A stretch of 64,000 nucleotides of DNA from Bacillota bacterium (GCA_963666425.2 OY762825.2:2838650-2902649), one strand, 5' to 3'; shown: positions 2,808 through 63,634, counted from the first letter of the stretch. Notes: a model not told the origin generated them from the letters alone. A program made the numbers and translations.

Positions 2808-2835
2808 TGTTCCAAGGGGACGGGGTGCTGGCACA
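2808..2835 (+). repeat. 29-bp site copy (28-nt variant)
   Basis: TGTTCCAAGGGGACGGGGTGCTGGCACA. Confidence 0.9.
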
Positions 2836-3031
2836 GACTCACAAATTATCGATTTATTCTCCGGATAAGGTTTCGTCTTACTTGCAGTAAAACTTTGATC
2901 TGATAAGCAAAAACATAAATTTTTTGACAAACCCAAGAATGCAGATCATTGGTTTATTGCAGCATTGCACATTCTAAATATCATGGACAAATTAGATGTC
3001 ATCGAAAGCTTTTCACCTCCGGGTAGTCAAC

Positions 3032-3315
3032 TGTATTTTATCAAGAAGAAATCCCTGAAATTATCAAGATAAATTCCCGAAAAGAATCAAAGGTAATCCC
3101 GGGAAGAATCATAGAGGTTATTTTGTAGTTTGGCGCATCAAAGCATGAATTATTCGGTAGCTTTGGCCCTTAAAAATCAGATGATGACCATTGTGACCAA
3201 ACGGTCAGTCATGGCAGCGGCCATCCACTCATCAGTGAAAATACCACCCCATTTGGAAAATTCGATGACCGTTGTGAGAATCAAGCTCTTCTTCTCGTAG
3301 TTGTGCTTTTCCCAT
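3032..3315 (-). mobile_element. IS21-family relic: istB 3' fragment plus terminal repeats
   Basis: Minus strand reads YEKKSLILTTVIEFSKWGGIFTDEWMAAAMTDRLV (IstB C-terminus); TG-starting end at 3032 with reiterated ATCAAG..AAATCCC.GAAA subrepeats. Confidence 0.6.
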
Positions 3316-3710
3316 GAGTGCCAGTTCTTCCATCTCTCCATTTAGTTATACATCGATTGATTTGGATTAGCAAAAGCGCAAACTATTTTACAATACCTTC
3401 TTGCTTATGCAAAGAAGATTGTCAGTTCAAACCTGCTTACCTAAAAGCCTGTAATATTTGCTGTCAAATTACGGCCAAAAATTCCTGTCAGTTTGCGGCC
3501 AAAGCACTTGGCAGCAACGAAATGGTCTGGACGCATTCAAGATTGGAAGCATATTCTCTTACAATTATCGATTTATTTTCCGTATAAGATTTCATCCCAC
3601 TTGCAGTAATGCTTGTTCTGGTAAGCAAAAGCACAAAACTCTTGACAGACCCAATGCGGCAGCTTTCAGAACAAAAAAATAAACAAGTGGAAGTTTGATT
3701 TGGAGGATTT

Positions 3711-4598
3711 ATGGGAAAGAACATTTTCAAAAAAAGAATAATATTGTACTTAGCTCTTATTTATTCCTTTCTTTTTATCGGGTGGTTGTCAATATTGGCA
3801 TTTTCAAATGCGTATATAATAGTATGGGGACTTTTTAGTATATTTCCAATTATAGCAACTATTATTACCAAGAAGATTACCAAAGATCAATTCCCATGGC
3901 TTCTAAAACCAAATTTTAAGAAAAATCGGAAAATCTATTTGTTTTCAGCGTTTGCTCCGGGACTTGCCATATTCATTGGAGCAATGGCGTTTTATTTGTT
4001 ATTTCCAAATGATCTGGATTTCAGTGGCAGGTATATAGTTGAAAATTATTCACAGTATGGAGCTCCTGCTGCTCTGCATCTCACGATTGGGAATATAGTT
4101 ACTATTGGCATTGGCGCAATAATAATTTCACCTTTCATTCTGCCAGTACACATTTTTGCTTTAGGAGAAGAAATCGGTTGGAGGGGATATTTATTACCAC
4201 TTCTTCTGCAAATCACAAGTACAAAAAAAGCAGTTTTACTTCATGGATTCCTTTGGGGGATTGCTCATGCTGCATTGATATACTTTGGTTTTAATTATTC
4301 TATGGATTACTGGGGAGCTCCTTATTCTGGCATGATTATGATGATATTTGTATGCGTGGTGTTAGGTATTTGGCTTGCTTATGTTACCATAAAATCAGGA
4401 AGCATTATTCCAGCGACCATACTACATGGAGCATCAAATGTTATTGGTGAGTTACCTATAATGGTATCCTTATTAAGTGTGAGCCGATTACTAGGCCCTA
4501 ATCCAACAGGGATTATTGGTTTGAGTGGTTTGATATTGGGAGCAGTGCTTTTATTACAGAGAATGCCAAAAAATAATGATAAATTCGGAATGCCATAA
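3711..4598 (+). CDS. CPBP-family intramembrane metalloprotease (CAAX protease/Abi)
   Basis: GEEIGWRGYL, W..AH, H..SN motifs; multiple TM segments. Confidence 0.88.
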   Translation: MGKNIFKKRIILYLALIYSFLFIGWLSILAFSNAYIIVWGLFSIFPIIATIITKKITKDQFPWLLKPNFKKNRKIYLFSAFAPGLAIFIGAMAFYLLFPNDLDFSGRYIVENYSQYGAPAALHLTIGNIVTIGIGAIIISPFILPVHIFALGEEIGWRGYLLPLLLQITSTKKAVLLHGFLWGIAHAALIYFGFNYSMDYWGAPYSGMIMMIFVCVVLGIWLAYVTIKSGSIIPATILHGASNVIGELPIMVSLLSVSRLLGPNPTGIIGLSGLILGAVLLLQRMPKNNDKFGMP

Positions 4599-4838
4599 AT
4601 CAAGATAGCAACGTTGAGTGAAATTGATACTTACTCTCTAGAATGGGCATTCCGGTTTTCAGCGAAAATCCGATAAACCGCTCTGGTTTCAACCCTCGCT
4701 GATGCAAAACGAAGCCAAGCTGTGGTAAAAGTTCTTTCCTTACAATTTTTGTATGCATACGATGGACGAGTGCAACGAGATTCTTACAGTGAAAGGCTTT
4801 GACAAACTAGTCGGTAGAAACAAAGGGGGTTTGATATT

Positions 4839-7022: not shown

Positions 7023-7239
7023 ATTTACTGACCATGTTGCGGGCATACGCCAAGCGGCAGTAATGAAAACCGGATGTCAAGGTGACCGATATGCGGCACA
7101 GATAGGCCATCAGATTCTGTTCTCTGAGCGGAACGCTTCGCTGACCGAGAACAACATAGGGCATTGATTCGTGGAGCAGTACACAGCTTATATGGACGTT
7201 ACCCCAAAACACACGCGACAATCAAAATAAATAACATGC

Positions 7240-7287
7240 TTGATTTTCACCACTTAAAGCATTATAATTGCTTTAGGTGGTGAAAAT
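7240..7287 (+). promoter_or_regulatory. Sigma-A promoter overlapped by an 18-bp inverted-repeat operator
   Basis: TTGATT-17-TATAAT; arms ATTTTCACCACTTAAAGC / GCTTTAGGTGGTGAAAAT (1 mismatch), as expected for AbiEi autorepression. Confidence 0.75.
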
Positions 7288-7890
7288 ATGATAAAGACGA
7301 TAGCGATGTTAATGGCTGAACTGAAAGAGTATGTGAATCCAACAGCTAAGATCCGGCGGCTCGTGGATGAAGGGAAATTGATTCCCGTTGTCAGAGGTTT
7401 GTACGAAACAGATGGGAGCATACCAGGATACTATCTTGCTCCAATTATTTACGGACCTTCATATTTGTCTTTTGAATTTGCATTGGCATACTACTCGCTT
7501 ATTCCAGAAGCGGTATACAGTTTTACATCAGCAACTTTTGAAAAGAAAAAAGCAAAGCAATATACAACACCCTATGGTACATTTACTTATCGTGATGTTC
7601 CAAGCGAAGCATATCCTGCTGGTATTGTTCTGCATTCTGAGAACGGGTATGGGTTTCAAATTGCGACTCCTGAGAAAGCCATCTGCGATGAACTCTACAA
7701 AATTTCTCCTCTAAAGAACAGTGGCGATTTGGAACGCCTTTTATTCGAAGACCTAAGAATTGACAAGGAAGAATTCTATCATCTGAAACTATCGGATTTA
7801 CTTGAAATAGCGGCTCTTTATCACACGCAGAATCACAAGCTGCTGCAGGCTTATCTCAGAAGGGGAATAAAAAATGGATCAAATTATTGA
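7288..7890 (+). CDS. AbiEi-like type IV toxin-antitoxin antitoxin
   Basis: RGLYET..IYGPSYLSFEFALAYYSLIPE..ATPEKAICD pattern. Confidence 0.8.
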   Translation: MIKTIAMLMAELKEYVNPTAKIRRLVDEGKLIPVVRGLYETDGSIPGYYLAPIIYGPSYLSFEFALAYYSLIPEAVYSFTSATFEKKKAKQYTTPYGTFTYRDVPSEAYPAGIVLHSENGYGFQIATPEKAICDELYKISPLKNSGDLERLLFEDLRIDKEEFYHLKLSDLLEIAALYHTQNHKLLQAYLRRGIKNGSNY

Positions 7891-7909
7891 GCAAATGTTG
7901 ACGCAATAG
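7874..7909 (+). pseudogene. 5' stub of AbiEii-like toxin (MDQIIEQMLTQ*), cut at the 29-bp site
   Basis: Overlaps the abiEi 3' end with its own RBS; N-terminus resembles AbiEii starts; site begins 2 nt after the stop. Confidence 0.5.
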
Positions 7910-7910
7910 A

Positions 7911-7939
7911 TGTTCCAGGGGGACGGGGGTGTTGGCACG
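7911..7939 (+). repeat. 29-bp site copy
   Basis: TGTTCCAGGGGGACGGGGGTGTTGGCACG. Confidence 0.93.
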
Positions 7940-8184
7940 GAGTTGGATAATCCAGTTTTACTGAGATCCCAAAACGCTTTATGTATCATATGCGCAACTT
8001 GATCAGATAAGTTACTTTTCAGCTGTAATCCGAACACCCTGATGCGCGAGGCTGCCTTTCTGCGTGAGCTGGGCTCTGAAGTGGTCATTGGTCAGGCAGT
8101 GGATAGGTTCCCCATGACAATGCACATGGAGACTGCCGTGTTGATGTGTGCATAAGTGAATTTTTATGCATTAAGGAGAAACAA

Positions 8185-8664
8185 ATGGAACAGATTTTTA
8201 TGAGCTTTCTAGACACGGTTCCCGAACACTTAAGACCATTCGTGAGCGAAATCGACGCTTATCTGCTAGACAAAAACTGCAAAAGAAGCATTAAGCCCGC
8301 GGCAAAAGGATACCTGGTTTCCTATGCGTTGCCGGTTTCAAAGAAAACGCTGCTCAATTTCGTATTTAGGAAAGGCTGCGTGAAGGCAAGGATTTATGCG
8401 GCACATGTAACAGAATATGAGGACCTCGTCAGTGGATTTCCCGAAGCAACAAAGAAAGAGATAGCGGCCGCCCTTGAATGCAAAAAGTTGACCGGACTTA
8501 CCTGCAGCCCGACCTGCCCTGCTGGATATACATTTGTAATGGACGGTGTGGAATACAAGAAATGTCGCAGTATGGCTTTTCTTCCCATACTGAATGAGGA
8601 AAATAACCCTTTCATAAGAAAAATGATCGAAGCAGAAGTTTGTTGTTCAATGACGGATAGATAA
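8185..8664 (+). CDS. Hypothetical protein, copy 2
   Basis: Near-identical to 1697-2176. Confidence 0.7.
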   Translation: MEQIFMSFLDTVPEHLRPFVSEIDAYLLDKNCKRSIKPAAKGYLVSYALPVSKKTLLNFVFRKGCVKARIYAAHVTEYEDLVSGFPEATKKEIAAALECKKLTGLTCSPTCPAGYTFVMDGVEYKKCRSMAFLPILNEENNPFIRKMIEAEVCCSMTDR

Positions 8665-8696
8665 ACCTTAATTTGGATTATGCCGAGGTGCAGAGA

Positions 8697-9245
8697 ATGG
8701 TTATTTACAGAGAGTTGACAGAGTGTGATATCCTTGATGCTGCCAGGTTGAAAGCATCATGCTGGGATGAAGAAACTGCAGGCACATCAAGCGAAAAACC
8801 TGATATTGTTAAAGAGCATACTTCATTTGTTAAGTGGATGAAGACAGCGGATGAAAATGCTGATGTCCGTTTGTTATATGGTGCTTTTGATGACGAAAAG
8901 ATGGTTGGCACAGTTTTTGCCAGCTTTGTCGAGTCTAAAGATGCTCCCGAACACGGATTTGAGTTGAATGGACTCTGGGTGGATCAGGGGTATCGCCGTC
9001 GGGGGATAGCATTGACTTTGCTGAAAAAAGTATGCGAAGAGTTTAGAAAACTAGGAGCAAAGAAAATGATTGTCTACAATTATCACATTGCTCCGTCAAA
9101 CAGTTTTTACCTTAAATTTGGGTGTAATGTCATCTCTACGGAATATCAAACAAAAGATAGGCTGCAAACCGATATCATCGAAGGAAATATTGAAGATCTG
9201 ATCACGAGATTATCCGTGTCGCTTCAGAGAGTGGTCTTGAGATAA
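8697..9245 (+). CDS. GNAT N-acetyltransferase, copy 2
   Basis: Near-identical to 2209-2757. Confidence 0.85.
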   Translation: MVIYRELTECDILDAARLKASCWDEETAGTSSEKPDIVKEHTSFVKWMKTADENADVRLLYGAFDDEKMVGTVFASFVESKDAPEHGFELNGLWVDQGYRRRGIALTLLKKVCEEFRKLGAKKMIVYNYHIAPSNSFYLKFGCNVISTEYQTKDRLQTDIIEGNIEDLITRLSVSLQRVVLR

Positions 9246-9295
9246 TTGTTCCATCGAAAACAATGCGATAAGTCCAATTCGCCTGGCCATCAGTA

Positions 9296-9323
9296 TGTTC
9301 CAAGGGGACGGGGTGCTGGCACA
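9296..9323 (+). repeat. 29-bp site copy (28-nt variant)
   Basis: TGTTCCAAGGGGACGGGGTGCTGGCACA, same variant as 2808. Confidence 0.9.
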
Positions 9324-9510
9324 GACTTGCTGTCACCCACTCAACTCAATTATCTGTATAGAGTATCTCGTACAATTCCCATATTTCTCGTAATATTATC
9401 CTTCATGCGAATCTCTTCCACACGAGTGGCCTCAGCCAGACTCAAATCCAGAGCTTTTTGCCATGCGCACATCAATGAACGTGAGGCATTAACAATGGCT
9501 CCCATGCCAT
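9324..9510 (-). pseudogene. Diverged copy of the pyrF 3' end and downstream flank
   Basis: Aligns to about 15215-15401 (GACTTGCTGTCACCCACTCAACTCAATTATCTGTATAGAG...CCCAT). Confidence 0.85.
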
Positions 9511-15185: not shown

Positions 15186-15214
15186 TGTTCCAGGGGGACG
15201 GGGGTGTTGGCACA
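15186..15214 (+). repeat. 29-bp site copy
   Basis: TGTTCCAGGGGGACGGGGGTGTTGGCACA. Confidence 0.95.
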
Positions 15215-16176: not shown

Positions 16177-16736
16177 ATAAATCTCTCCTTTTGGGTTCGT
16201 TTTGATTTTTATGAATGAATTCCAATCTGTGTGAATATGGGATCACTGATAAGTTGCACGCTGTTTTTAACAGATGTATAAGATATCAAGCGCCAATGTT
16301 TGTATTCTACTATCGATTCCCATAATATTCAATACTGATTTTCTGATTTTATAATAACCTAACACTTCAGACATCAGAATTAGCCTATCGTTTCATCGGG
16401 TGTTGATACAGAGTTGAAAAATCTAGTTATGCTGAAAACTAAAAACGCTCTCACAACCGTATGCACAACTCAATCCAATTAGCTTCTTTTCAGTTGCGAT
16501 CCAAATAGACAGTGCGTGTCATTGCGCTCCTGCGTGAATTGGACTATATAGTGGCCATTAGTTAGGTATTGGTCATGCTCTCTATAGAATACACATGTTG
16601 AACCCATAATGTCCTTAGGCGTCGGTTTCAACAATGCATTGCGCATTTCGGTAACATGCCTTATAATAGTAGAACACGCATTGTGTCATCACGAATCATT
16701 TCAAGAAATCTAAAATCGAAAAGGAAGTAATACAAA

Positions 16737-16924: not shown

Positions 16925-17434
16925 ATGTCGATTAATCAACAGAGAACAGATTTAATCAAGTTAATTCTTGAAGATGAAACCATCGCAGCCGAAGAAGATG
17001 AAATTTTGCACATGCTGCTAATGGAGCAAGTTTCTAAAGATCCTGTAGCTGTTAATAAAGAGAATGTCACATTTGGTCAAAAAGCAGCAGACAATCTTGC
17101 TAAATTTGCAGGCAGCTGGGTTTTCATCATAATATTTTTTGCGATATTGGCTTCCTGGATTATATTGAACACAGTAATATTAACAAAAGCGTATGATATT
17201 TACCCGTTTATACTGCTTAATTTAATTTTATCATGTCTCGCTGCAATTCAGGCACCCATTATAATGATGAGCCAGAATCGTCAAGAAGAAAAAGACAGAT
17301 TAAGAGGCATAAATGATTATAAAGTAAACCTAAAAACGGAGATTATGATTGAGGATATTCACGAGAAATTAGATTCAATTATAGAAAACCAACAAGAACT
17401 TTTCGAAAGAATCAATTCTTTAGAGAATAAATAA
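16925..17434 (+). CDS. DUF1003-family membrane protein
   Basis: TFGQKAAD..FAGSW, YPFILLNLILSCLAAIQAPIIMMSQNRQ. Confidence 0.85.
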   Translation: MSINQQRTDLIKLILEDETIAAEEDEILHMLLMEQVSKDPVAVNKENVTFGQKAADNLAKFAGSWVFIIIFFAILASWIILNTVILTKAYDIYPFILLNLILSCLAAIQAPIIMMSQNRQEEKDRLRGINDYKVNLKTEIMIEDIHEKLDSIIENQQELFERINSLENK

Positions 17435-17490
17435 CATGCTTGATTTACACCACCTAGAGCATTATAATTGCTTTAGGTGGTGTAAATATA
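17428..17490 (+). promoter_or_regulatory. Second copy of the abiEi promoter/operator, with no gene, directly before a 29-bp site
   Basis: TTGATT-17-TATAAT; arms ATTTACACCACCTAGAGC / GCTTTAGGTGGTGTAAAT; homologous to 7228-7290. Confidence 0.8.
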
Positions 17491-17491: not shown

Positions 17492-17520
17492 CGTTCCAGG
17501 GGGACGGGGGTGTTGGCACA
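17492..17520 (+). repeat. 29-bp site copy
   Basis: CGTTCCAGGGGGACGGGGGTGTTGGCACA. Confidence 0.95.
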
Positions 17521-19493: not shown

Positions 19494-19520
19494 TGTTCCA
19501 AGGGGACTGGGGAGCCGGGT
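19494..19520 (+). repeat. Degenerate 29-bp site
   Basis: TGTTCCAAGGGGACTGGGGAGCCGGGT, 2 nt after a stop codon and followed by AAGTTGAAT like other copies. Confidence 0.7.
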
Positions 19521-19554
19521 AAGTTGAATTAGAATTTGCAGAGGTGTTTTGTAA

Positions 19555-20088: not shown

Positions 20089-20218
20089 ATTTTACACTGC
20101 TTCAGTATAGCGATGAATTCCAGTTTGCTGTTGTGTTTTCATACTGGCACTGCCGGAGAAGGTAAAGTGAGTAATCTATTTAAGTAAGAAGCGTTTATAT
20201 TGTGTGAGGAGGATTTAT

Positions 20219-21136
20219 ATGAAAGCAATTGTGGAGATGCTAAATAAGAACTATCCCTTTGAGATAGACCGCATTGAATTACTGCGTGATATGGGGAGTA
20301 CGTCTTACACCGCATTTTCCGGCAGCAATAAATACTTCTTGCGCGCAATTAAGCCTGCGCTTCTTGACACAGCGGTTATCGGTACCAACATTCAAGTGTT
20401 TTTGCAAAAGCAAGGCTTTCCGGTGCCGCCGATTATCTTTACAAATGATGACTTACATTATGTAAAAGATGAAAACGGACTGTTCATTCTATATGAGTTT
20501 ATTGAGGGTAACGACTGCAATCCGGAGCAGGACGCGGAAGCCATCGGAGCGCTGGTGGGCAGGCTTCACAAAGAAATGAAAATCTATACCGGTGAGCTTG
20601 TTCAACGGGACAAGCATTTTTACATTGGAAGATATATTGAAATTCTGCGGAAAAAAGGATATCCCAGAATAGATGAATACTCAAAATATGGTGATGATCT
20701 TTGGGACGAAATCAAGGAATTGCCACGAGGATATTGCCATGGCGATCTGTATGAGGGTAATATACGAAAAGGATCTGACGGTAAGTTATATATACATGAT
20801 TTTGATACCTCCTGCGAAGGTTTTCCGATGTATGACCCAACTTTGATCTGTGATATGACCAAATATTTTGATTTTGATGAGAGCAATTTTGATCGGTCAA
20901 ACAAAGTGTTTTCCAGGTTTCTATCAGAATACAAAAAATACATTCCCCTTAGTCAAGCGGAAATAGATGCCTTTCATGCCTTGATTGCCATACAACATTT
21001 CTCTACCCAAGCTACGGTGATGGAGATATTTGGCATTGATTGTATTGTCGCTACAGATATGGACAATCAACTTGAGTGGCTGTACCGGTGGCGCCAACAA
21101 TGTGCCAGGGGAACGGGGGTATTGGCACAGAGTTGA
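20219..21136 (+). CDS. APH/homoserine kinase type II-like phosphotransferase; reads through the 29-bp site
   Basis: GYCHGDLYEGN, IHDFD. Confidence 0.85.
   Translation: MKAIVEMLNKNYPFEIDRIELLRDMGSTSYTAFSGSNKYFLRAIKPALLDTAVIGTNIQVFLQKQGFPVPPIIFTNDDLHYVKDENGLFILYEFIEGNDCNPEQDAEAIGALVGRLHKEMKIYTGELVQRDKHFYIGRYIEILRKKGYPRIDEYSKYGDDLWDEIKELPRGYCHGDLYEGNIRKGSDGKLYIHDFDTSCEGFPMYDPTLICDMTKYFDFDESNFDRSNKVFSRFLSEYKKYIPLSQAEIDAFHALIAIQHFSTQATVMEIFGIDCIVATDMDNQLEWLYRWRQQCARGTGVLAQS
21101..21129 (+). repeat. 29-bp site copy
   Basis: TGTGCCAGGGGAACGGGGGTATTGGCACA. Confidence 0.9.
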
Positions 21137-23288: not shown

Positions 23289-23568
23289 TTTTTAATCTAC
23301 AGGATCCGTCAAAAGTTTTGCGCTTTTTCTAGCTGTTATTACGAAACCGAGTCGTTTTCATACAAACAGTGCTGCGATCCTGTCATACTGCTTAATTCCG
23401 CATTTCAAATTACATTAACGCCTTTGCAACGGGATTTGCTGCTGGACGGAGAATGGAAGAAACCGATTATACAGGTTTGGAACAGGATACCGGGTTTTCC
23501 TTTGATGATTACGCGCCGCGTAGAGCGAAGTGGTTTCCGCAGCCGCTTTGCGTGAAAGAGAGGAAGTT

Positions 23569-24375
23569 ATGAAGAAACTCGTTTTTATCGAAGGGGTATC
23601 AGGTGTAGGCAAATCCACCACGGTAATGAAGCTTTGTGATGCTTTGAATGGCCACGGCTTTCGGTCTGTCTGTCATTTGGAAGGCGATACGGATAATCCT
23701 GTGGATTTCTTTCACTGTGCTTATTTGACAAAAATAGAGTTTTCTCAGTTGTTGCAGAATTATCCGAGCGATACATGCGTGCTGAAGAATAACAGCATTT
23801 CAGAAGCCGATTATGTGCTTGTCCGTTATGGTAACCGCAACACAACCTATTTCACCCCACCGCTTTTCGATGTATTAAAAATGTATGAGGGGTTTTATAA
23901 ACCCATAAAGCTGATTGCCATTGAACAATATACAAAAGTTTTTACTGACAGTTGGCGACGATTTTTACGGCAAGATCAAGGTAACACAGACTTTGTGATT
24001 GTTGACGGCAGCTTTCTCTATCATCGTGCCAATGATCTGATACAGAATTACAATGCTACTGATGAAATGATTGCTGCACACCTGAAAACATTGCTTTCGG
24101 CGATGTTGCCATACACTCCGCTTCTCTTCTACCTTTCTTCAAATGATGTCGGTGCGCAGCTGATTCGAGCGCGAGAAAGCCGCGGACAAGCTACGGCAAC
24201 CAAAGCTCAAATTGCTTTTGAGACAGTGAGAAAAAACCGGCAAACTCAAGTATTGAAATTGCTGCCTATACATGCACATATCATCGACATCTCAGACGGT
24301 TGGGAAAACGCGATTAATGATATGCTGGGTATTATCTTGTGCCAAGGGGACGGGGGTGTTGGCACAACTGGATAA
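23569..24375 (+). CDS. P-loop NTPase/kinase-like protein; reads through the 29-bp site
   Basis: FIEGVSGVGKST; RBS GAGGAAG. Confidence 0.7.
   Translation: MKKLVFIEGVSGVGKSTTVMKLCDALNGHGFRSVCHLEGDTDNPVDFFHCAYLTKIEFSQLLQNYPSDTCVLKNNSISEADYVLVRYGNRNTTYFTPPLFDVLKMYEGFYKPIKLIAIEQYTKVFTDSWRRFLRQDQGNTDFVIVDGSFLYHRANDLIQNYNATDEMIAAHLKTLLSAMLPYTPLLFYLSSNDVGAQLIRARESRGQATATKAQIAFETVRKNRQTQVLKLLPIHAHIIDISDGWENAINDMLGIILCQGDGGVGTTG
24338..24366 (+). repeat. 29-bp site copy (perfect arms)
   Basis: TGTGCCAAGGGGACGGGGGTGTTGGCACA. Confidence 0.95.
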
Positions 24376-25737: not shown

Positions 25738-26184
25738 ATGATAGAGATTTTTGCAATAACGCAGGAGCATAGATTATGGAAAGATACGATTGAATTTGCG
25801 GATCATTGTTCTTGGAAGGCCGGAGCCTTTTTGGCAGCGAAGATGAGAGAAAATGCGTTTTGTGCCTGGGAAAGAGTCTTTATCTCTTGCGTCGATGGGA
25901 AAATAGTTGGTTTTTCTACATTGGCTGCAAAGGATGAGCTTCCGGAAGGCTTTGAATTTACCCCCTTTATTGGATTTATATTTGTTGATGAGAAGTATCG
26001 TGGCCACAGATTATCAAAATTAATGATTGATACCGCTGCTGAATATGCTGATGAATTAGGATATGAAAAAGTATATCTTATGAGCGGTGAAATTGGCTTG
26101 TACGAAAAATATGGCTTTGTAAAATTGGGAGATTATGAGACGATCTATGGTTCGGTTGACCAACTCTTTGTAAAATCAATCTGA
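25738..26184 (+). CDS. GNAT acetyltransferase; stop codon is the first 3 nt of the site
   Basis: FIFVDEKYRGHRLS, LYEKYGF. Confidence 0.88.
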   Translation: MIEIFAITQEHRLWKDTIEFADHCSWKAGAFLAAKMRENAFCAWERVFISCVDGKIVGFSTLAAKDELPEGFEFTPFIGFIFVDEKYRGHRLSKLMIDTAAEYADELGYEKVYLMSGEIGLYEKYGFVKLGDYETIYGSVDQLFVKSI

Positions 26185-37343: not shown

Positions 37344-37344
37344 T

Positions 37345-37788: not shown

Positions 37789-37790
37789 GA

Positions 37791-42235: not shown

Positions 42236-42404
42236 AGTGTCTTCAAAAAATCAAAATCACCCTCCTAATTCATATCGGCTGCAACACAAATACAATGACA
42301 CCTGCGTTGCGTTCCTGCATGCGCTTGGCAGTGGCTTAATTACAGTAGTGGATTGGATTTTGTCAGCCGATGGATCGGATGAAAGCGAGAAAGGGAAGCT
42401 GCAG

Positions 42405-43154
42405 ATGGAAAGTGAGTTTATTAATCTAGCATCGGAGAATATTGCTGACGAGCATTTGTGCTGCATTATCCGTAGTAAAAAGCCTCATCCCGGTATAGAA
42501 GCAAAAAGAGTTTGGCTTTCTGAAAGAATCAAAGAAGGTCATGTCTTTCGTAAGTTGAAGGCCAAAGCTACGGTATTTATTGAATATGCACCATTAGAAA
42601 CGGCCTGGGTTCCGATCGTCGGGGATAATTACTGCTACATTTATTGCCTGTGGGTTTGCGCTGAATATAAAGGCAAAGGCTACGGAACGGCATTAATGGA
42701 TTACTGTATCCGGGATGCGAAAGAAAACGGCAAATCCGGAATTTGTATGCTGGCAGCAAAGAAACAAAAAAACTGGCTTTCCGATCAGGGCTTTGCTAAA
42801 AAATACGGATTCCAGGTTGTTGATTCTACGGCAGACGGTTATGAGCTGTTGGCTCTCTCTTTTGCTGGGACAACGCCGCAATTTACGGAAAAAGTAAGAA
42901 AACAGCAAATTGTGGATCAACAGCTGACGATTTATTACAGCATGCAATGTCCGTTTATCCTGCAGAGGATTGCCGGAATAAAACAATACAGCAAAACCAA
43001 CAATCTCCCGGTTACCCTAATTCAGGTCAATTCGCTTCAGCAAGCAAAAGCACTTCCTTGTGTTTTCAATAATTGGGCAGCATTTTATAAAGGACAATTT
43101 GTCACTGTGAATCTGCTGGATGCTGGTTCAATAGAGAAAATCCTGAAAAAGTGA
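42405..43154 (+). CDS. GNAT acetyltransferase with YoaP-like domain
   Basis: YCLWV..YKGKGYG, YYSMQCPF, PCVFNNWA.FY.GQF. Confidence 0.85.
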   Translation: MESEFINLASENIADEHLCCIIRSKKPHPGIEAKRVWLSERIKEGHVFRKLKAKATVFIEYAPLETAWVPIVGDNYCYIYCLWVCAEYKGKGYGTALMDYCIRDAKENGKSGICMLAAKKQKNWLSDQGFAKKYGFQVVDSTADGYELLALSFAGTTPQFTEKVRKQQIVDQQLTIYYSMQCPFILQRIAGIKQYSKTNNLPVTLIQVNSLQQAKALPCVFNNWAAFYKGQFVTVNLLDAGSIEKILKK

Positions 43155-43163: not shown

Positions 43164-43190
43164 TGTGCCAAGGGACGGGGTATTGGCACA
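43164..43190 (+). repeat. 29-bp site copy (27-nt variant)
   Basis: TGTGCCAAGGGACGGGGTATTGGCACA. Confidence 0.88.
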
Positions 43191-43357
43191 TTTATCGGGA
43201 TGCTAATAGAATGAACCAAATTGCAGGGTAAATCCGATGAAGTCATATCAACAGCTCCGATGAATCCACAATACTCTTGTCTGATTCGCTAAGAGAGAGC
43301 ATACACACTTAGGTGTGTATTTTGGCTTCGGCTGTTTGAACTATGGGAGGAGAAAGT

Positions 43358-44299: not shown

Positions 44300-44665
44300 A
44301 TGGGGAACGATTCGGGAGATGAATTGTCAGACGCGTTGCAAGTTGTATTGTCTACCATTCAGAAATGTGAAAAGATACAGCCAAAATTCGCGGAGGGGAC
44401 TTCCCAACATACGCTGCTTAAGAACAGAATCAAGGCGATGTATATCTCAAAGGCGCTCATCCTGGGGGAAATTGAGATTGAGCGATATTCGAAAGAAGAG
44501 TTGCTCAATGCTCTGAAGCTGGTAGCATCTGTGATCAGCAAGTGTGAAACAGGTCAGAAAAAGCATGCGAAAGAAGCACCTCAATATAAACGCTTTCAGA
44601 AGATCATTGACGCGATGAACATTTCCAAAACGTTGATTACAGCTGAAATTAGTAAAAGAGGTTAA
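44300..44665 (+). CDS. Hypothetical helical protein with internal repeat
   Basis: Two S.I.KCE..Q.K.A...Q halves. Confidence 0.65.
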   Translation: MGNDSGDELSDALQVVLSTIQKCEKIQPKFAEGTSQHTLLKNRIKAMYISKALILGEIEIERYSKEELLNALKLVASVISKCETGQKKHAKEAPQYKRFQKIIDAMNISKTLITAEISKRG

Positions 44666-44668: not shown

Positions 44669-44697
44669 TGAGCCAAGGGGACGGGGGTGTTGGCACA
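44669..44697 (+). repeat. 29-bp site copy
   Basis: TGAGCCAAGGGGACGGGGGTGTTGGCACA. Confidence 0.95.
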
Positions 44698-47990: not shown

Positions 47991-48656
47991 ATGAATATTG
48001 AGGTTGAAAAAATGAACAAAACGATTCTGATCCGCAATGAAAAAGAAGCAGATTATCAGAGAGTAGAAGAAATTACAAGGACTGCTTTTTGGAATTTATA
48101 TGTTCCGGGGTGCTATGAACACTATTTAGTTCATGTTATGCGATCCCATCAGGACTTTCTGCCGCAACTAGACCTGGTGATTGAAGCGGATAATCAAATC
48201 ATCGGAAATATTATGTACACAAAAGCTAAACTGGTAGATCAATCCGGAGAAGAAAAAGAAATTCTGACATTCGGTCCGGTTTGTATTTTGCCGGAATATC
48301 AAAGATTAGGTTATGGGAAAGTGCTGATGGAGTATTCTTTTCAACAAGCGGCTGCACTTGGCTATGATGTGATCGTGATATTCGGAAACCCTTATAATTA
48401 TGTAAGCCGCGGCTTTGTGAGCTGTAAGAAGTACAATATCTACCATGAGAATGGCACATGCCCTATGGCCATGATGGTAAAAGAACTGAAGCCAGAAGCT
48501 TTAGACGGAAGAAAATGGATTTACTATGAAAGTCCTGTGATGAATATAGACGAACAGGAAGCCGAGCGCTTTGATGAGAGTCTGCCAAAAATGGAGAAGA
48601 AATACCAGCCAAGCCAGGAAGAATATTATATTTACAGTCATTCTATTGTACGCTAA
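47991..48656 (+). CDS. GNAT acetyltransferase (YhbS-like); TAA stop begins a degenerate site
   Basis: FGPVCILPEYQRLGYG, FGNP..Y..RGF. Confidence 0.88.
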   Translation: MNIEVEKMNKTILIRNEKEADYQRVEEITRTAFWNLYVPGCYEHYLVHVMRSHQDFLPQLDLVIEADNQIIGNIMYTKAKLVDQSGEEKEILTFGPVCILPEYQRLGYGKVLMEYSFQQAAALGYDVIVIFGNPYNYVSRGFVSCKKYNIYHENGTCPMAMMVKELKPEALDGRKWIYYESPVMNIDEQEAERFDESLPKMEKKYQPSQEEYYIYSHSIVR

Positions 48657-48682
48657 ACCAGGGAGACTGGGGTGTTGGTCTC
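48654..48682 (+). repeat. Degenerate 29-bp site
   Basis: TAAACCAGGGAGACTGGGGTGTTGGTCTC. Confidence 0.7.
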
Positions 48683-49303: not shown

Positions 49304-50053
49304 ATGAGTACTCAGTTCGATCCCCAAAACAAGCTGATTCAACAATGTCTTCAGGGAATAAACAGGGAAGAGAACGGCAAACCAGACGAGGCTAGCCTCT
49401 TGTTTCTGCAGGCTTGGCATGCAGCAGCAGACGATTTTGAAAAATTCATCGCTGCCTATTTTGTTGCACGACACCAAAAAAGTAATTCAGATAAATTGAA
49501 ATGGCTGGAAACATCTTTGCAGTTTGCACTAAAAACAAAGGATGACACAGTGAAGAGCGCTTTGCCAACGTTATATTTGAACATTGCCCAATGCTATAAT
49601 GCGTTAGGCGATTCCAACAAGGCAAAAACGAATGATGCTCTGGCAAATTCGTATCAAGGTATTCCTTTCGACAAAGGTCCTTTTTATCATGGCACAAAAG
49701 CGGATTTGCAGGTTGGCGATCTATTAACAGCAAAGCGGACTTCGAACTATCAACCCGAGCTCAAAATGAATCACGTTTATTTTACTGCCCTTCTGAATGG
49801 TGCTGGATTAGCAGCATCCTTAGCAAAAGGGGAGGGAATTGAACGTGTTTATCTGGTAGAACCCACCGGAAGTTATGAAAATGACCCCAATGTAACAGAT
49901 AAGAAATTTCCGGGTAATCTGACGCGCTCTTATCGCTCACAGGAACCGTTGAAAATTGTGGGTGAAGTAACCGCCTTTCGGCAGCTGACGCCCGAGGAAC
50001 TTCGCTTATGGCGTGAAAAATTGGCCAATACCAAAGGCAAAATTATCAATTGA
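49304..50053 (+). CDS. arr: NAD+:rifampin ADP-ribosyltransferase with N-terminal TPR-like helical domain
   Basis: FYHGTKADL..GDLL, SNY, HVYFT, VYLVEPTG..ENDPNVTDKKFPGNLTRSYRS. Confidence 0.88.
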   Translation: MSTQFDPQNKLIQQCLQGINREENGKPDEASLLFLQAWHAAADDFEKFIAAYFVARHQKSNSDKLKWLETSLQFALKTKDDTVKSALPTLYLNIAQCYNALGDSNKAKTNDALANSYQGIPFDKGPFYHGTKADLQVGDLLTAKRTSNYQPELKMNHVYFTALLNGAGLAASLAKGEGIERVYLVEPTGSYENDPNVTDKKFPGNLTRSYRSQEPLKIVGEVTAFRQLTPEELRLWREKLANTKGKIIN

Positions 50054-50079
50054 GCCAAGGGGACGGGGGTGTTGGCACA
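50051..50079 (+). repeat. 29-bp site copy; first 3 nt are the arr stop
   Basis: TGAGCCAAGGGGACGGGGGTGTTGGCACA. Confidence 0.95.
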
Positions 50080-52231: not shown

Positions 52232-52260
52232 TGTCCCAAGGGGACGGGGGTGTTGGCACA
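52232..52260 (+). repeat. 29-bp site copy
   Basis: TGTCCCAAGGGGACGGGGGTGTTGGCACA. Confidence 0.93.
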
Positions 52261-52807: not shown

Positions 52808-53596
52808 ATGAAAAATATCGTGATTACCGGCAGTACACGCGGCATTGGCTTTTCGATGGCGATTGAGTTTTTGAAAGTCGGTTGTCATGTTACGCTGTCC
52901 GGCCGAGGTGAAGCGCTCACAGAAGCTGCTACTACTAAATTATCACCCTTTGAGGGGAAATACATCTATGTCCCATGCAACGTCCAGGAAAGAGCGAGTC
53001 AGCTAAAACTCTGGGAGGCTTCTTTTGAAAAATGGGGCGGGATCGATATCTGGATCAATAATGCGGGGCAAAACACTCCGCATGTGTTTGCTTGGGAAAC
53101 AGGTGAAACCTACACCGAAAACATTATTAAAACCAATCTGATCGGCATGATCTACGGTTCACAGGTTGCGGCAGCGGGAATGCTCAAGCAGGGGCATGGC
53201 GCAATTTACAGTATGGAAGGACTTGGCTCCAACAATATGATTCAGGTAAAAACAATATTGTATGGTACTACCAAACATGCACTTACCTACTTCATGAAAG
53301 GGCTTGCCAAAGAATTACAGGGCAGCAATGTCATAGCGGGCCGGTTATCACCCGGCATGATGCTGACTGATTTCATCACCAAAACCCCGGACGGTGAAGA
53401 ATCGGAGGTTATCTCGGATCAGACTTTTAGAAACCTATTCAACATATTGGCAGATAAGCCGGAAACAGTCGCTGCATTTTTCATCCCAAGAATGCTCAGC
53501 AACACTAAAAACGATACCAATATCGTTTGGCTAACCAATAGAAAAGCGGCATGGCGTTTTATGACGGCGAGTTTCCGTAAAGACAGATTGATTTAG
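52808..53596 (+). CDS. Short-chain dehydrogenase/reductase
   Basis: TGSTRGIG, NNAG, YGTTK; stop overlaps the site. Confidence 0.92.
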   Translation: MKNIVITGSTRGIGFSMAIEFLKVGCHVTLSGRGEALTEAATTKLSPFEGKYIYVPCNVQERASQLKLWEASFEKWGGIDIWINNAGQNTPHVFAWETGETYTENIIKTNLIGMIYGSQVAAAGMLKQGHGAIYSMEGLGSNNMIQVKTILYGTTKHALTYFMKGLAKELQGSNVIAGRLSPGMMLTDFITKTPDGEESEVISDQTFRNLFNILADKPETVAAFFIPRMLSNTKNDTNIVWLTNRKAAWRFMTASFRKDRLI

Positions 53597-53623
53597 TGCC
53601 AAGGGGACGGGGGTGTTGGCACA
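53595..53623 (+). repeat. 29-bp site copy
   Basis: AGTGCCAAGGGGACGGGGGTGTTGGCACA. Confidence 0.95.
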
Positions 53624-53780: not shown

Positions 53781-53993
53781 ATGAACGAGCCAAAAGGAAA
53801 ACATGCATGGACGGTCACGGTCGGAACGAAAGGGCAGTTTGTCATACCTAAGGAAGCACGCGAGCTTTTTGGCATTGAGCCTGGTGATACGCTGATTTTA
53901 CTGGCTGATGAAGAACGAGGAATTGCTATCCCTCCCAAGGAATCGTTCAATGAATATTATGGAAGGATCTTTGGTGTTGAAAAAAATGAGTAA
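53781..53993 (+). CDS. AbrB/MazE/SpoVT-family DNA-binding protein
   Basis: VGTKGQFVIPKEARELFGIEPGD. Confidence 0.88.
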   Translation: MNEPKGKHAWTVTVGTKGQFVIPKEARELFGIEPGDTLILLADEERGIAIPPKESFNEYYGRIFGVEKNE

Positions 53994-55155
53994 AATTGTA
54001 TTTTTCTGTATTCCAGCTCATGGTCATACAAACCCGACGCTTGGTGTTGTCCGTGAACTTATCTCCCGCAACAATGAAGTTTTCTATTATTCCTATGAGA
54101 GCATGCGAAGTAAAATTGAAGCGACAGGCGCACATTTTATTCCCTGCGACGCCTATGATCCGCAGATCCATTTAAAGCAGGAAGATGCTGTCCGCCTGGG
54201 CCATGACCTTGCTTTTTCAACAAATCTCATAGTGGATATCACGCTTGCTTTGGACGATGCAATCATTGAGGATATGAGAAGCCTCCAGCCGGATCTTATT
54301 ATTGCAGATTCTATGGCTTTTTGGGGAAAGCTGATCGCAAAGAAATTAAATATTCCCTTTGTATCTTCCACAACAACCTTTGCTTTTAATCGCTATTCTG
54401 CCAAAGTCATGAAGCAAGGCGGTATGAACATCCTTTCCATGCTATTGGCTTTACCAAAAGTGAATCGTAGTTTGAACAAACTGCGCGCCAAAGGCTATCT
54501 CATCAAGAATGTGCTTGACATTGTCGCCAATGATAACGCCACCAATACCATCGTTTATACTACGCGGGAATTTCAGCCCTGCGCGGAGACGTTTTCTGGT
54601 AGTTATCATTTTGTCGGACCAATTTTGCGTGAACCAAAAATACAGCTGGAAAAAATCGCGAAACCGACGGTCTACATTTCTCTTGGCACGGTAGAGAATA
54701 ATAAGCAAAGCTTTTATCGTGATTGTCTGAAGGCTCTGGCTGGTGAAGAGTACCGCGTTATTATCTCAGCCGGTGAAAACACCGATCTTGCCGCCTTGGG
54801 GCAGATCCCGAAAAATTGCATTGTTCAGCCCTCGGTAGATCAATCTGCTGTTTTGGCTGTTACCGATGTTTTCTTGACGCATTGCGGTATGAATAGTGTC
54901 AGCGAAGCGCTTTACTACGGTATTCCTTTGGTTCTTTATCCTTCCACACCGGAGCAGCAAGGAGTCGCGAATCGGGTGCAGGAGCTCGGAGCCGGTTGCT
55001 TCCTGAAAGGCACCTCAACCAAAGAGATTCAGGAGATCATTAAAAATGTGCTAAACAACGCAGCCATGCGAGGCCGGGCCAAAGCTATTGCAGATGGTTT
55101 TCACCGCTGCGGTGGTGCAAAAGCAGCGGTTGATTTTCTTGAAACATTGCTCTAG
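53986..55155 (+). CDS. GT1 glycosyltransferase, MGT/macrolide-glycosyltransferase family
   Basis: PAHGHTNPTL, VYISLGT, FLTHCGMNSVSEAL..GIP, EQ. Confidence 0.88.
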   Translation: MSKIVFFCIPAHGHTNPTLGVVRELISRNNEVFYYSYESMRSKIEATGAHFIPCDAYDPQIHLKQEDAVRLGHDLAFSTNLIVDITLALDDAIIEDMRSLQPDLIIADSMAFWGKLIAKKLNIPFVSSTTTFAFNRYSAKVMKQGGMNILSMLLALPKVNRSLNKLRAKGYLIKNVLDIVANDNATNTIVYTTREFQPCAETFSGSYHFVGPILREPKIQLEKIAKPTVYISLGTVENNKQSFYRDCLKALAGEEYRVIISAGENTDLAALGQIPKNCIVQPSVDQSAVLAVTDVFLTHCGMNSVSEALYYGIPLVLYPSTPEQQGVANRVQELGAGCFLKGTSTKEIQEIIKNVLNNAAMRGRAKAIADGFHRCGGAKAAVDFLETLL

Positions 55156-55156: not shown

Positions 55157-55185
55157 TGTGCCAAGGGGACGGGGGTGTTGGCACA
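55157..55185 (+). repeat. 29-bp site copy (perfect arms, extended by CTA.T/A.TAG)
   Basis: TGTGCCAAGGGGACGGGGGTGTTGGCACA, 1 nt after a TAG stop. Confidence 0.95.
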
Positions 55186-55372: not shown

Positions 55373-56202
55373 ATGAAAAAACGGATGCTTGCAGCAGCGG
55401 TAGCTATCCTACTCGTTTTATGGATAGTGTTTCTGATCTATTCAAAAAGTGACCCAGCAGAGCTGCTGAATCCTGACGGAAAGACAATCGCTGAAAGGTT
55501 TGATACTCCAAGCGATTATGAAAGAACAACGGAGACCGCAGAATCATATCAACAGTATCTCCGAACTCTGCCGGTAAAGACGCAGGGCACGCAAGTGAAG
55601 TATTACAACGGGGAGACAAAACGAAAAGAGGTCTATGAAGCAGTGCTCGATGTTGATGTGGCAAGCGGGATCTTCAACAATGTGCCGATGCAGCCATCCG
55701 ATTAAGAGCCGAATATTTGTATGGTTTACAGCAGTATACAAGAATTCACTTCAATTTCACCAACGGTTTCGAGGCGGATTATGCTAAATGGATGGAAGGC
55801 TACAGAATCTCAGTCACAGACGACGAGGCGGTATGGTACAAAGATACTGGTTATTCTGCCGAATATGCTGTATTCAGGGAATACCTGGACATGGTCTTCG
55901 CATATGCCGGTACGCTTTCTCTGCTTCAGGAAATGCAGCAGATACCGCTTTCGGATATGAGGATTGGTGATGTCTTTCTGGACAAGGGTCATGCAATTAT
56001 CATTGTCGATATGGCGGTCAATCAGGTATCGGGAAGTAAATTATTCATGCTGGCACAAAGTTATATGCCTGCTCAGGATATCCAGATACTTAAAAACCCT
56101 CAAAATAAGGATTTAAGTCCATGGTATCCCTTAGATTTTAATAATACACTGGTAACGCCAGAATGGACTTTCACGGCAAACGATCTGAGAAGATTCGAAT
56201 AG
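55373..56202 (+). pseudogene. DUF4846-family exported protein, frameshifted near 55660
   Basis: YEAVLDVDV continues in another frame as GKRDLQQCADAAIRLRAEYLY; later GHAIIIVD, LAQSYMPAQ; could be a sequencing error. Confidence 0.75.
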
Positions 56203-60428: not shown

Positions 60429-60457
60429 TGTACCAGGGGGACGGGGGTGTTGGCACA
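60429..60457 (+). repeat. 29-bp site copy
   Basis: TGTACCAGGGGGACGGGGGTGTTGGCACA. Confidence 0.95.
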
Positions 60458-61761: not shown

Positions 61762-61884
61762 CTTCAATTTATCACAAAATCAATTTAATATCGGGATGCT
61801 TTTGAACCGGTCAGCTTCAGATACTGCCAGGAAGAGCAGACTAAAACTGATTGGGAAGGAAGCAAGTTGTTTATATAAAATTAC

Positions 61885-61927
61885 AAGCCCTGTTACTGCA
61901 GATCGATAGGATGCAGTAGCAGGGCTT
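61885..61927. terminator. Hairpin between convergent osmC-like and ABC-F genes
   Basis: AAGCCCTGTTACTGCA...TGCAGTAGCAGGGCTT. Confidence 0.65.
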
Positions 61928-61930
61928 AGA

Positions 61931-63535
61931 TTATGCATGAAGATTCAATTCCAGATACTCGTCATACGACATTTTTCTGTCGATGATGCCATCTGGCGTG
62001 ATTTCAATGATGCGGTTGGCGATGGTTTGCACAAATTCATGATCGTGGGAGGCAAAGAGGAGGGTACCGGAAAAGTTAATCAAGCCATCGTTGAGTGAGG
62101 TGATCGATTCCAGATCCAGGTGATTGGTCGGCTCATCCAAGATGAGAACATTGGCATTGCTGAGCATCATCTTACATAACATACAACGGACTTTTTCACC
62201 GCCGGAGAGAACACATGCTTCTTTTTGAGATTCTTCGCCGGAAAATAACATTCTGCCCAAATAACCTCTGATGAAGCTTTCTGCCTGTTCCACGGAAAAC
62301 TGACGCATCCAATCCACAAGATTGAGCGAAACATTTTGAAAGAACTCGGTATTGTCCTTTGGGAAGTAAGCTTGAGAAGTCGTAACCCCCCATTTGAATT
62401 CGCCGCTGTCTGCTGTCAGCTCATTCATTAGGATTTTAAACAGTGTCGTCTTTGCCTGTTCATTTGTCCCTACCAAGGCGACCTTATCGCCTTTATCCAG
62501 CTTAAAGCTGATCTGATTCAAAAACGTTTGTCCGTCTAGCGTTTTCGTCAGATTTTCTACGGTTAAAAGTTCGTTGCCGGCTTCTCTTTCGGGTTTGAAA
62601 CCTACATAAGGATATTTTCTGGAGGAAGGCTTGATATCTTCAATCGTTAGTTTCTCCAGTTGCTTTTTTCGGGAGGTAGCTTGTTTTGATTTGGAGGCAT
62701 TGGCGCTGAAACGGTCAATAAAGTCCTGCAAATCTTTGCGCTTTTCTTCCACTTTTTTGTTTTGATCACGCTGCATTTGCAGCGCTAACTGGCTGGAGTG
62801 ATACCAAAAATCATAATTGCCATTGTAAATTTGGATTTTGCCATAGTCAACATCCGCAATGTGTGTACATACTCTATTGAGAAAATGTCGATCATGTGAA
62901 ACCACAATGACAGTGCTTTCAAAATTGGAGAGGAAATTTTCTAACCAGGTGATCGCTTTCAGGTCCAGATGGTTTGTTGGTTCATCCAGCAGCAAGATGT
63001 CTGGCTGACCAAATAAAGCCTGAGCCAATAAAACCTTAACTTTTTCATCGCCATTCAATTCTTTCATCAGCTTGTGATGCAAAACTTCCACTAAACCCAG
63101 TCCTGTTAGAAGTGAGGCAGCTTCCGCTTCTGCTTCCCAGCCGTGCAGCTCATCGAACTCAAATTCCAATTCCGCAGCTTTGATGCCATCTTCATCGGTA
63201 AATTCTGCTTTCCCGTAGAGCACATCTTTTTCTTGCATCAGCTGAAAAAGTCTTACATGTCCCATGATGACCGTTTGCATGACTTCGAACTCATCAAATT
63301 CAAAATGATCCTGTTTCAGAACAGCTAAGCGCTCGCCGGGGGTTATGAGGATTTCGCCCTGGTTTGGCTCAATTTCTCCTGTCAATATTTTGAGAAATGT
63401 AGATTTTCCGGCTCCGTTGGCGCCAATTAAGCCGTAGCAGTTGCCGGGTGTAAATTTAATACTCACATTATCGAACAATTTGCGGCCGCCATATCTTAAA
63501 CTCACATTGCTTGTACTAATCACTGATCCATCCAC
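61931..63535 (-). CDS. ABC-F ATPase (YbiT/YkpA type)
   Basis: GANGAGKST, two LDEPTNHLD, FSANASKSKQATSRKK linker, LSGGEKVRCML. Confidence 0.92.
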   Translation of the reverse strand: MDGSVISTSNVSLRYGGRKLFDNVSIKFTPGNCYGLIGANGAGKSTFLKILTGEIEPNQGEILITPGERLAVLKQDHFEFDEFEVMQTVIMGHVRLFQLMQEKDVLYGKAEFTDEDGIKAAELEFEFDELHGWEAEAEAASLLTGLGLVEVLHHKLMKELNGDEKVKVLLAQALFGQPDILLLDEPTNHLDLKAITWLENFLSNFESTVIVVSHDRHFLNRVCTHIADVDYGKIQIYNGNYDFWYHSSQLALQMQRDQNKKVEEKRKDLQDFIDRFSANASKSKQATSRKKQLEKLTIEDIKPSSRKYPYVGFKPEREAGNELLTVENLTKTLDGQTFLNQISFKLDKGDKVALVGTNEQAKTTLFKILMNELTADSGEFKWGVTTSQAYFPKDNTEFFQNVSLNLVDWMRQFSVEQAESFIRGYLGRMLFSGEESQKEACVLSGGEKVRCMLCKMMLSNANVLILDEPTNHLDLESITSLNDGLINFSGTLLFASHDHEFVQTIANRIIEITPDGIIDRKMSYDEYLELNLHA

Positions 63536-63605
63536 CTTATAGTTAATAGTTTCAATTTTTAACTGAACTTTTATATTATATCACATCTTCAGCAATAAAT
63601 CTAGC

Positions 63606-63634
63606 TGTGCCAACACCCCCGTCCCCTTGGCACA
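63606..63634 (-). repeat. Inverted 29-bp site copy (perfect consensus on minus strand)
   Basis: TGTGCCAACACCCCCGTCCCCTTGGCACA. Confidence 0.95.

Follow-up and report, generated by a model that had tools for sequence, protein, structure and literature searches.

A 29-bp repeat among accessory genes

The 64-kb stretch analysed here (hereafter, the window; OY762825.2:2838650-2902649) forms the end of a 2.90-Mb contig (C1) in the 3.2-Mb assembly GCA_963666425.2 of a Bacillota bacterium, whose genus probably belongs to the Negativicutes. It holds accessory genes punctuated by a 29-bp repeat, TGTKCCARGGGGACGGGGGTGTTGGCACA, which a first-pass annotation made from the sequence had described as the site of an integron-like gene array. 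We read the repeat as a probable repetitive extragenic palindromic (REP) element with its own REP-associated tyrosine transposase (RAYT), and refer to its copies as REPs throughout. The source genome was set against that of a sister species, the sole other species of the genus compared, from which nearly the whole window is absent, the exceptions being 36437-39183 (78% identity) and an insertion sequence (IS). The GC content of the window is ~41%, compared with 47% for the genome.

All 24 coordinates listed in the first-pass annotation hold the motif, and 17 of the 24 copies (16 on the plus strand and one on the minus strand) match it with three mismatches or fewer, compared with none in 100 dinucleotide shuffles; the repeat is real. 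Deletions of 1-2 bases occur in four of them (2808, 9296, 26982 and 43164), three others are half-degenerate or partial (19494, 34165 and 48654), and extra relics beyond the listed 24 lie at ~16382-16410 and ~1555-1585. Across 42 single copies on C1 the limits of the element are sharp, with conservation running from base 1 to base 29 and the flanks unconserved. Window REPs are spaced 0.7-5.9 kb apart, as calculated from their coordinates, and all are single, with no doublets. Their orientation is the same (plus, with the G-rich strand as the leading strand) in 23 of 24 cases, the sole minus-strand copy being the REP at 63606-63634. As the first-pass annotation had also noted, the consensus lacks the R'' (RYYYAAC) and R' (GTTRRRY) boxes of integron attC sites: read directly, GTTGGCA and TGCCAAC are each one base off.

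Stop codons are concentrated at the REP edge. Open reading frames (ORFs) of at least 80 codons have a stop starting between -6 and +2 of REP base 1 at 9 of the 23 plus-strand copies, compared with 0.33 on average and never more than 3 in 500 sets of random positions, which bears out the earlier description of stop codons at the site. Four ORFs use the REP's own TGA or TAA as their stop: the REPs at 26182-26210 (through its first three bases), 34165-34193 (degenerate) and 50051-50079 supply the TGA of a GNAT ORF (25738-26184), of the ORF 32440-34167 and of an Arr (rifampin ADP-ribosyltransferase family) ORF (49304-50053), respectively, and the degenerate REP at 48654-48682 supplies the TAA of another GNAT ORF (47991-48656). 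Three further ORFs read through a REP, namely an APH-family ORF (20204-21136, through the REP at 21101-21129), the ORF 23530-24375 (through the perfect hairpin at 24338-24366) and a HAD ORF (26301-27020, through the REP at 26982-27010, which carries a 1-base deletion). The REP at 53595-53623 overlaps the stop of an SDR ORF (52808-53596), and the REP at 28952-28980 lies directly after the stop of the ORF 27992-28951, with a 5'-truncated kinase gene fragment following 11 nt later. Another perfect hairpin, at 55157-55185, begins 1 nt after the stop of a glycosyltransferase ORF (53908-55155), and the REP at 44669-44697 begins 3 nt after the stop of the ORF 44300-44665 and is followed by a T-run. 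At the half-degenerate copy 19494-19522, of which only the left part is present, the stop of the upstream ORF starts 5 nt before the element, and the REP with deletions at 43164-43192 lies 12 nt past the start of the stop codon of the ORF 42237-43154. The REP at 15186-15214 adjoins the 3' end of a minus-strand gene of the orotidine monophosphate (OMP)-decarboxylase family, that at 39409-39437 follows a minus-strand gene and is nonetheless in plus orientation, and that at 52232-52260 lies between minus-strand and plus-strand genes. A further plus-strand copy is found at 60429-60457.

The Pfam search confirmed the cargo type reported in the first-pass annotation, with many GNATs, two HAD genes, NUDIX, Arr-ms, APH and a UDPGT-type glycosyltransferase; its toxin-antitoxin part is a truncated AbiEii gene. 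Three of these families are drug-modifying and end at a REP (APH, 20204-21136; Arr, 49304-50053; and a macrolide-type glycosyltransferase fold, 53908-55155), and a streptomycin adenylyltransferase family gene (L012:4367-5158) also ends at one. Two transposable elements lie on the plus strand of the window. An IS21-family element (IstA/IstB; 29258-31700), with three other copies in the genome, cuts the kinase fragment mentioned above, and an IS1182/IS5-like element (DDE_Tnp_1_6 + DUF772; 35042-36869) is multi-copy, with relatives in or beside REPs elsewhere. Among smaller features, a ~180-nt repeat at 39201-39384 has at least five other copies on C1 (79-85% identity) and ends 25 nt before the REP at 39409. 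A 64-nt repeat with a terminator-like hairpin (7226-7289 and 17426-17489, 94% identity) sits just upstream of two different blocks, its second copy ending 3 nt before the REP at 17492. The DUF4846 gene at 55373-56202 is split into adjacent ORFs of 110 and 161 aa and is probably frameshifted.

The hairpin with 8-bp arms proposed in the first-pass annotation holds for one form of the repeat and not for another. The TGTGCCAA variant is the only form that folds well (DNA ΔG -7.8, z -3.5; ΔG -11.0 as RNA), whereas TGTTCCAG, the commonest variant in the window, forms no hairpin (z +0.44). A score of 20/29 or more is reached by 18 window copies, of which only three have a perfect left arm.

These observations bear on whether selection might simply maintain the site as a transcription terminator or as a stabiliser of mRNA 3' ends, with no role in DNA rearrangement. 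Such a role would suit sites placed directly after stop codons, with the G-rich strand in the sense direction, as well as the RNA fold of the perfect variant, and enterobacterial REPs have been reported to stabilise mRNA. We nevertheless consider it very improbable, given that TTTT occurs within 10 nt downstream of only 3 of the 18 window copies, that the commonest variant lacks the hairpin, that REPs stay in plus orientation even after minus-strand genes (39409 and 52232), that REP junctions cut genes, and that an association with a RAYT gene would not be expected of a terminator.

The repeat family across the genome and its transposase

A core-seeded scan found 113 REP sites in the source genome, of which C1 carries 91. 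Clusters are found on this contig at 2.82-2.90 Mb, 0-62 kb, 435-484 kb, 747-826 kb and 2.34-2.43 Mb and also on small contigs, and the sites range over ~60% of the chromosome in both orientations. The 106 good copies comprise 57 singles, 34 in doublets and 15 in tandem. The 34 form 17 head-to-head, REPIN-like doublets with gaps of 1-7 nt, in which the left-arm variants of the two partners match; many doublets lie in core regions, and the one that was folded gave a 29-bp stem (ΔG -40.4, z -13). Because copies occur genome-wide, in both orientations and often in core regions, part of the pattern that the first-pass annotation had itself named as speaking against its proposal is present, and its picture of a system confined to a single locus fails. 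The 21-nt core occurs 102 times in the source genome, 27 times in the sister species and not once in the 39 further relatives searched; the REP family is genus-specific. Eleven short metagenome contigs also carry the REP, mostly in colinearity with the source genome.

A Pfam Y1_Tnp search of the genome recovered a 245-aa Y1/HUH transposase ORF at C1:435359-436096, surrounded by REPs at 435300 (+), 435333 (+) and 436260 (-). One REP lies ~165 nt upstream of the gene, followed by a promoter-like site (TTGACA-17-TATACT), and two inverted REPs stand at its stop codon. This layout recurs in the sister species. Against PF01797 the protein reaches 45.5 bits (cut-off 23). Its sole PDB match, E. coli TnpAREP (4ER8, E 3.2e-5), aligns at both the HUH motif and the Y-x-x-x-NP motif; its ~100-aa C-terminal extension has no Pfam match. 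There are 5723 database homologues at E≤1e-10, many of them ~250 aa long and from Bacillota and some named RayT by the Joint Genome Institute (JGI), and the nearest named homologue (86% identical) comes from a metagenome-assembled genome (MAG) labelled Negativicutes. A contig search with the protein returned one relative, a homologue (48% identity) from a different MAG of the Bacillota. It too has inverted repeats of its own, one on its upstream side and two on its downstream side, and their G-rich loop, AAGGGGACNGG, is similar. The RAYT-like gene is single-copy, and the genome holds only one other, distant Y1 gene.

Since a RAYT gene flanked by inverted REPs goes together here with a genus-specific REP family, the arrangement corresponds to a REP/RAYT system of the kind outlined in Nunvar 2010 (PMC2817692). 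We therefore read the 29-mer as a REP family with its own RAYT, a Y1 HUH single-strand DNA transposase, at a probability of roughly 0.85. An HUH Y1 (RAYT-like) enzyme was one of two catalysts that the first-pass annotation had put forward, and such a gene does exist, flanked by inverted 29-mers in both species. The other, a tyrosine recombinase, finds no such backing: PF00589 has two matches genome-wide, both far from any REP cluster, and the best score for an integron integrase in the genome (TIGR02249) is 86.7 bits, at 2.137 Mb, against a cut-off of 265. Serine recombinases gave no match in the genome, which is scored 98.5% complete. Only one tyrosine recombinase is intact (C1:2137373-2138290), a low count given a genome size of 3.2 Mb and the extent of the accessory regions.

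The distant Y1_Tnp gene (28.6 bits; C1:531530-534901) is flanked by a different palindrome with a GTAG head, GTAGGGAAYGGTCTTGACCRTTCC, which matches ~200 times across the genome and nowhere in the window, so that the genome holds two REP/RAYT pairs. Long arrays of 7-8-nt microsatellites lie beside this second gene. Following REPs of the TGTTCCAG type we also noted a second conserved module of ~110 nt, at C1:468-484 kb, on contig C17 and in a locus of the sister species. It contains a long hairpin (GCACTGTAT...ATACAGTGC) kept in both species, has no Rfam match, and surrounds the gene of a 3383-aa SLH/cadherin/Big_9 surface protein, whose stop codon is adjoined by four tandem REPs, as well as AAA_14/DUF4143 genes. 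Four contigs (C3, C7, C10 and C12) differ in GC content (59-63% vs. 47%) and are probably contamination, the reported contamination of the assembly being 6.85%.

Junctions at repeat edges and decayed rumA ends

Contigs C4, C8, C16 and C17 are 95-98% variants of C1 regions, which indicates that strains are mixed in one assembly. The AbiEii toxin gene is full length in C4 (292 aa; PF08843, 108.7 bits), whereas in the window it is reduced to a plus-strand remnant of 11 codons (7874-7909) that stops 2 nt before the REP at 7911-7939. The REP of C4 adjoins the homologue of window position 12004, where the window has a fragment that we read as IS3-like. A block holding a 172-aa ORF of unknown function and a GNAT gene (1637-2839, plus strand) recurs at 8125-9327 (97.9% identity) and a third time in C4; all three copies follow a REP or a relic of one, and at their other end extend 3 nt beyond a REP. 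The two window copies end at the REPs 2808-2836 and 9296-9324, both with a 1-base deletion. The latter shares its upstream flank with the REP at 2808, and its downstream flank is that of the REP at 15186. Between species, synteny ends 2-3 nt before the REP doublet that follows a tmRNA-like 3' end, and a 9.3-kb block found only in the source genome lies after a tRNA gene, bounded by REP doublets. Several REPs of the window mark the exact edges of truncated or duplicated segments, as the first-pass annotation had observed of its breakpoints.

The loop of the element is marked as well. In eight cases the stretch of 11-17 nt with which the REP begins, ending in GGGGACG, ACGG or ACGGG, is present a second time immediately ahead of a full copy. 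Five of these cases belong to the source genome, one of the five being confined to a variant contig; the sister species accounts for two and a metagenome contig for one. In a metagenome contig an IS1182-like element sits inside the REP loop after GACGG, with a short target duplication, and a relic of such a junction is found at C1:599785. IS1182/IS5-like elements (DDE_Tnp_1_6 + DUF772) in the REP loop or at the REP edge were also seen at C8:10924-10954, and these insertions suggest that the IS targets the REP. Overall, the data support REP edges and loop as rearrangement hot spots.

The 100-200 nt that follow many REPs correspond, by tblastn and alignment, to the decayed last ~75 codons of a rumA/rlmCD-type methyltransferase gene. 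The best-kept of these modules (7940-8152, plus strand) follows the REP at 7911 and runs to the stop codon; its stretch 8012-8146 gives 67% identity over 45 aa (tblastn, E 1e-12). Similar decayed modules, whose ends are approximate, come after the REPs at 17492-17520, 21101, 24338, 26182, 26982 and 27690-27718 and after the degenerate plus-strand relic at 16382-16410, which was absent from the earlier list; the module joined to the REP at 32349-32377 is truncated at its 5' end. The same 100-200 nt had been considered as a promoter, leader peptide or riboswitch, an idea dropped in view of the rumA match and of an Rfam search of the window and three related loci, which returned nothing relevant.

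An intact rumA-type gene lies at C1:2813062-2814519, and the low-GC, terminus-side accessory region to which the window belongs begins at its 3' end, with 3.4 kb separating the gene from the region's first REP. The first REP after it, at 2817941, is directly followed by a displaced pseudo rumA 3' end, as are at least nine later REPs. Homology between rumA and its counterpart in the sister species stops 30 nt before the rumA stop codon. Five of 11 modules can be aligned to rumA, at 70-76% identity. REPs beside the modules are 93.7% identical in pairwise comparison, compared with 53% for the next 95 nt, which argues that the REP is maintained while its surroundings decay. The REP right arm aligns with the near-identical rumA sequence ATTGGCGCAG in four of eight modules (best local alignments, with weak scores); ATTGGCGCAG...CCACCCCGTC is the candidate REP-like site in rumA. 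The modules could have arisen by serial insertion at rumA or by duplication through REP-REP recombination.

Serial insertion could, for instance, have left attachment-site scars, if integrative and conjugative elements (ICEs), integrative and mobilizable elements (IMEs) or prophages had repeatedly entered rumA by means of a site-specific recombinase, the likeness to REPs being secondary. The recurrence of pseudo rumA 3' ends after the site would fit, and rumA of Streptococcus suis is described as a hot spot at which ICEs and prophages integrate (PMC7168690). We hold this explanation to be exceedingly improbable. A Pfam scan of the window found no integrase, relaxase or phage genes in the units, the genome has no serine recombinase match and only the two tyrosine recombinase matches located elsewhere, and the scan of the genome found no copy of the 29-mer in the intact rumA. 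Moreover, the same 29-mer flanks the RAYT gene and occurs in ~100 copies, as doublets and tandems unrelated to rumA, and this genome-wide distribution in large part refutes the scar explanation.

A second form of serial insertion, with the RAYT as its agent, would amount to a dedicated integron-like capture system. The enzyme would cut out units composed of a rumA 3' end, one or several genes and a REP as single-stranded circles, and these would be inserted one after another at the REP-like rumA site or at existing REPs, producing a polar cassette array. Much of what we describe would be expected of it: the start of the accessory region at the 3' end of rumA, the pseudo rumA ends directly after the REP at 2817941 and at least nine others, the common orientation of 23 of the 24 window REPs, stop codons at the REP edge as in attC cassettes, the scarcity of other site-specific recombinases (no serine and one intact tyrosine recombinase), and the alignment, albeit with weak scores, of the REP right arm on ATTGGCGCAG. 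However, no unit was seen to recur at a second position with REP boundaries as its exact limits on either side, and the left edge of the block 1637-2839 lies inside a rumA-derived module. REPs coincide with only 5 of 45 endpoints of strain variation. The pseudo rumA ends show no gradient of decay with distance from rumA among the five alignable modules of 11, and the 3' end of the functional rumA is not sharply foreign, with only mildly lower identity to the sister species over the last 300 nt and no sharp step. Finally, ordinary doublets of this REP occur throughout core regions. Capture of this kind is thus unlikely.

We are similarly doubtful of its wider form, in which a domesticated RAYT together with the REP would constitute a recombinase-free, integron-like gene accretion system in this Negativicutes lineage. 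It is also doubtful that the RAYT nicks the REP at its 5' edge and G-rich loop and joins REP-terminated units at the REP-like sequence of rumA, and we give as little credence to the further step, by which each join would displace the old rumA 3' end and so build a polar, leading-strand array of accessory and resistance-type genes. What stands of the gene capture and shuffling system first proposed is a RAYT-like gene as candidate catalyst and the exactness of several junctions; its single locus is not supported, and its unit-wise shuffling remains hypothetical. Strain differences, which such a system would place at the sites, lie mostly away from them. Among the few close strains available no cassette-precise gain or loss was seen, nor any excised circle, no junction reads having been examined.

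Interpretation and comparison with known systems

Several points weigh against reading the 29-mer as a REP family with its own RAYT. The transposase scores 78.1 bits against NCBIfam's RAYT model NF047646 (REP_Tyr_transpos), a score that counts in favour of the reading yet stays just under the cut-off of 80. Most described REPs have a GTAG or CGTC head at one end, according to the account in Di Nocera 2013 (PMC3733652), whereas the consensus here is TGTK...CACA, without such a head, and CGTC occurs only within the loop on the C-rich strand. In the window, the 8-bp arms of most copies contain 1-2 mismatches and their folding is not significant, the commonest variant forming no hairpin at all. 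Based on GC skew, the origin lies at ~1.66 Mb and the terminus at ~0.2 Mb, with all REPs within ~1.06 Mb of the terminus, and the G-rich strand is the leading strand in 38 of 46 non-doublet REP events on C1 (22 of 29 outside the window). This orientation bias would favour the reading, but it is inseparable from the gene-strand bias (~70% of ORFs on the leading strand, from crude, noisy calls), and clustered copies are not independent in the count. When the variant contigs were aligned to C1, only 5 of the 45 internal endpoints fell at a REP, a count made with no formal null, so most local variation arises otherwise. Among the pairs examined there was no filled-versus-empty site pair for a single REP. 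Lastly, a simple spread of REPs leaves the repeated rumA 3' fragments unexplained.

Under the REP/RAYT reading, we propose that the RAYT nicks and rejoins single-stranded REP DNA, thereby spreading and homogenising the copies, which would explain why REPs remain ~94% alike while only ~53% identity is left in the co-duplicated DNA next to them. Break-and-join hot spots would lie at the REP edges and at the loop point after GGGGACG/GG, and from them deletions reaching the REP from one side, new junctions at its 3' edge and duplications of part of the REP would result. Such joins might be the work of the RAYT, or might come from recombination between copies through short homology or from replication errors that the hairpin induces. 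The array-like look of the window would then reflect events of this kind that were tolerated and accumulated in accessory DNA.

The host function of RAYTs and REPs is an open question, and nearly all work has been done in Proteobacteria. Here we describe a Bacillota genome with a clear REP/RAYT pair, in which single REPs stand at the ends of accessory genes, including those of drug-modifying enzyme families, and mark exact breakpoints of truncation, duplication and inter-species synteny. The partial duplications that end at one loop point provide a candidate nick site, and together these features yield testable predictions for RAYT cleavage and REP-driven genome plasticity. They also call for caution, as REP families can produce arrays that look like integrons. 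A literature search found no paper on REP/RAYT systems in Negativicutes, although RAYTs of Bacillota may figure in the taxon tables that supplement Bertels 2017 and Nunvar 2010. According to Bertels 2017 (PMC5581495), Group 1 RAYTs also occur in Clostridia, and abundant repeats are found only with Groups 2 and 3.

Compared with integron attC arrays, sedentary chromosomal integrons and CALINs (clusters of attC sites lacking integron integrases), as these are generally described, the window is alike in its co-oriented short sites after small, unrelated accessory genes, in stop codons at or in the site and in a fixed polarity relative to replication. It differs in having no IntI, in a 29-bp site without R''/R' boxes that is also scattered genome-wide in both orientations, in blocks that are often multi-gene, with some genes on the opposite strand, and in strain differences that mostly lie away from the sites. 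With IS200/IS605 elements and palindrome-associated transposable elements (PATEs), again as generally described, the system shares a Y1 HUH transposase, single-stranded hairpin DNA and a fork-relative orientation bias; unlike them, its RAYT gene is single-copy, is not repeated together with its ends, and is far outnumbered by the repeats.

The likeness to proteobacterial REP/RAYT systems and REPINs, such as E. coli TnpAREP with its REPs and bacterial interspersed mosaic elements (BIMEs) and the Pseudomonas families, extends, as far as the published accounts drawn on here describe them, to a Y1/HUH gene flanked by inverted imperfect palindromes, ~100 mostly extragenic copies, doublets, a genus-specific sequence, one RAYT gene per REP family and IS insertion into the repeat. 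On the same accounts, the present system is set apart by its host, a Bacillota bacterium probably of the Negativicutes, by the lack of a GTAG/CGTC head and a G-rich loop of 13 nt, by a ~250-aa protein whose ~100-aa C-terminal extension has no Pfam match, and by its many strand-biased single copies abutting stop codons in accessory DNA.

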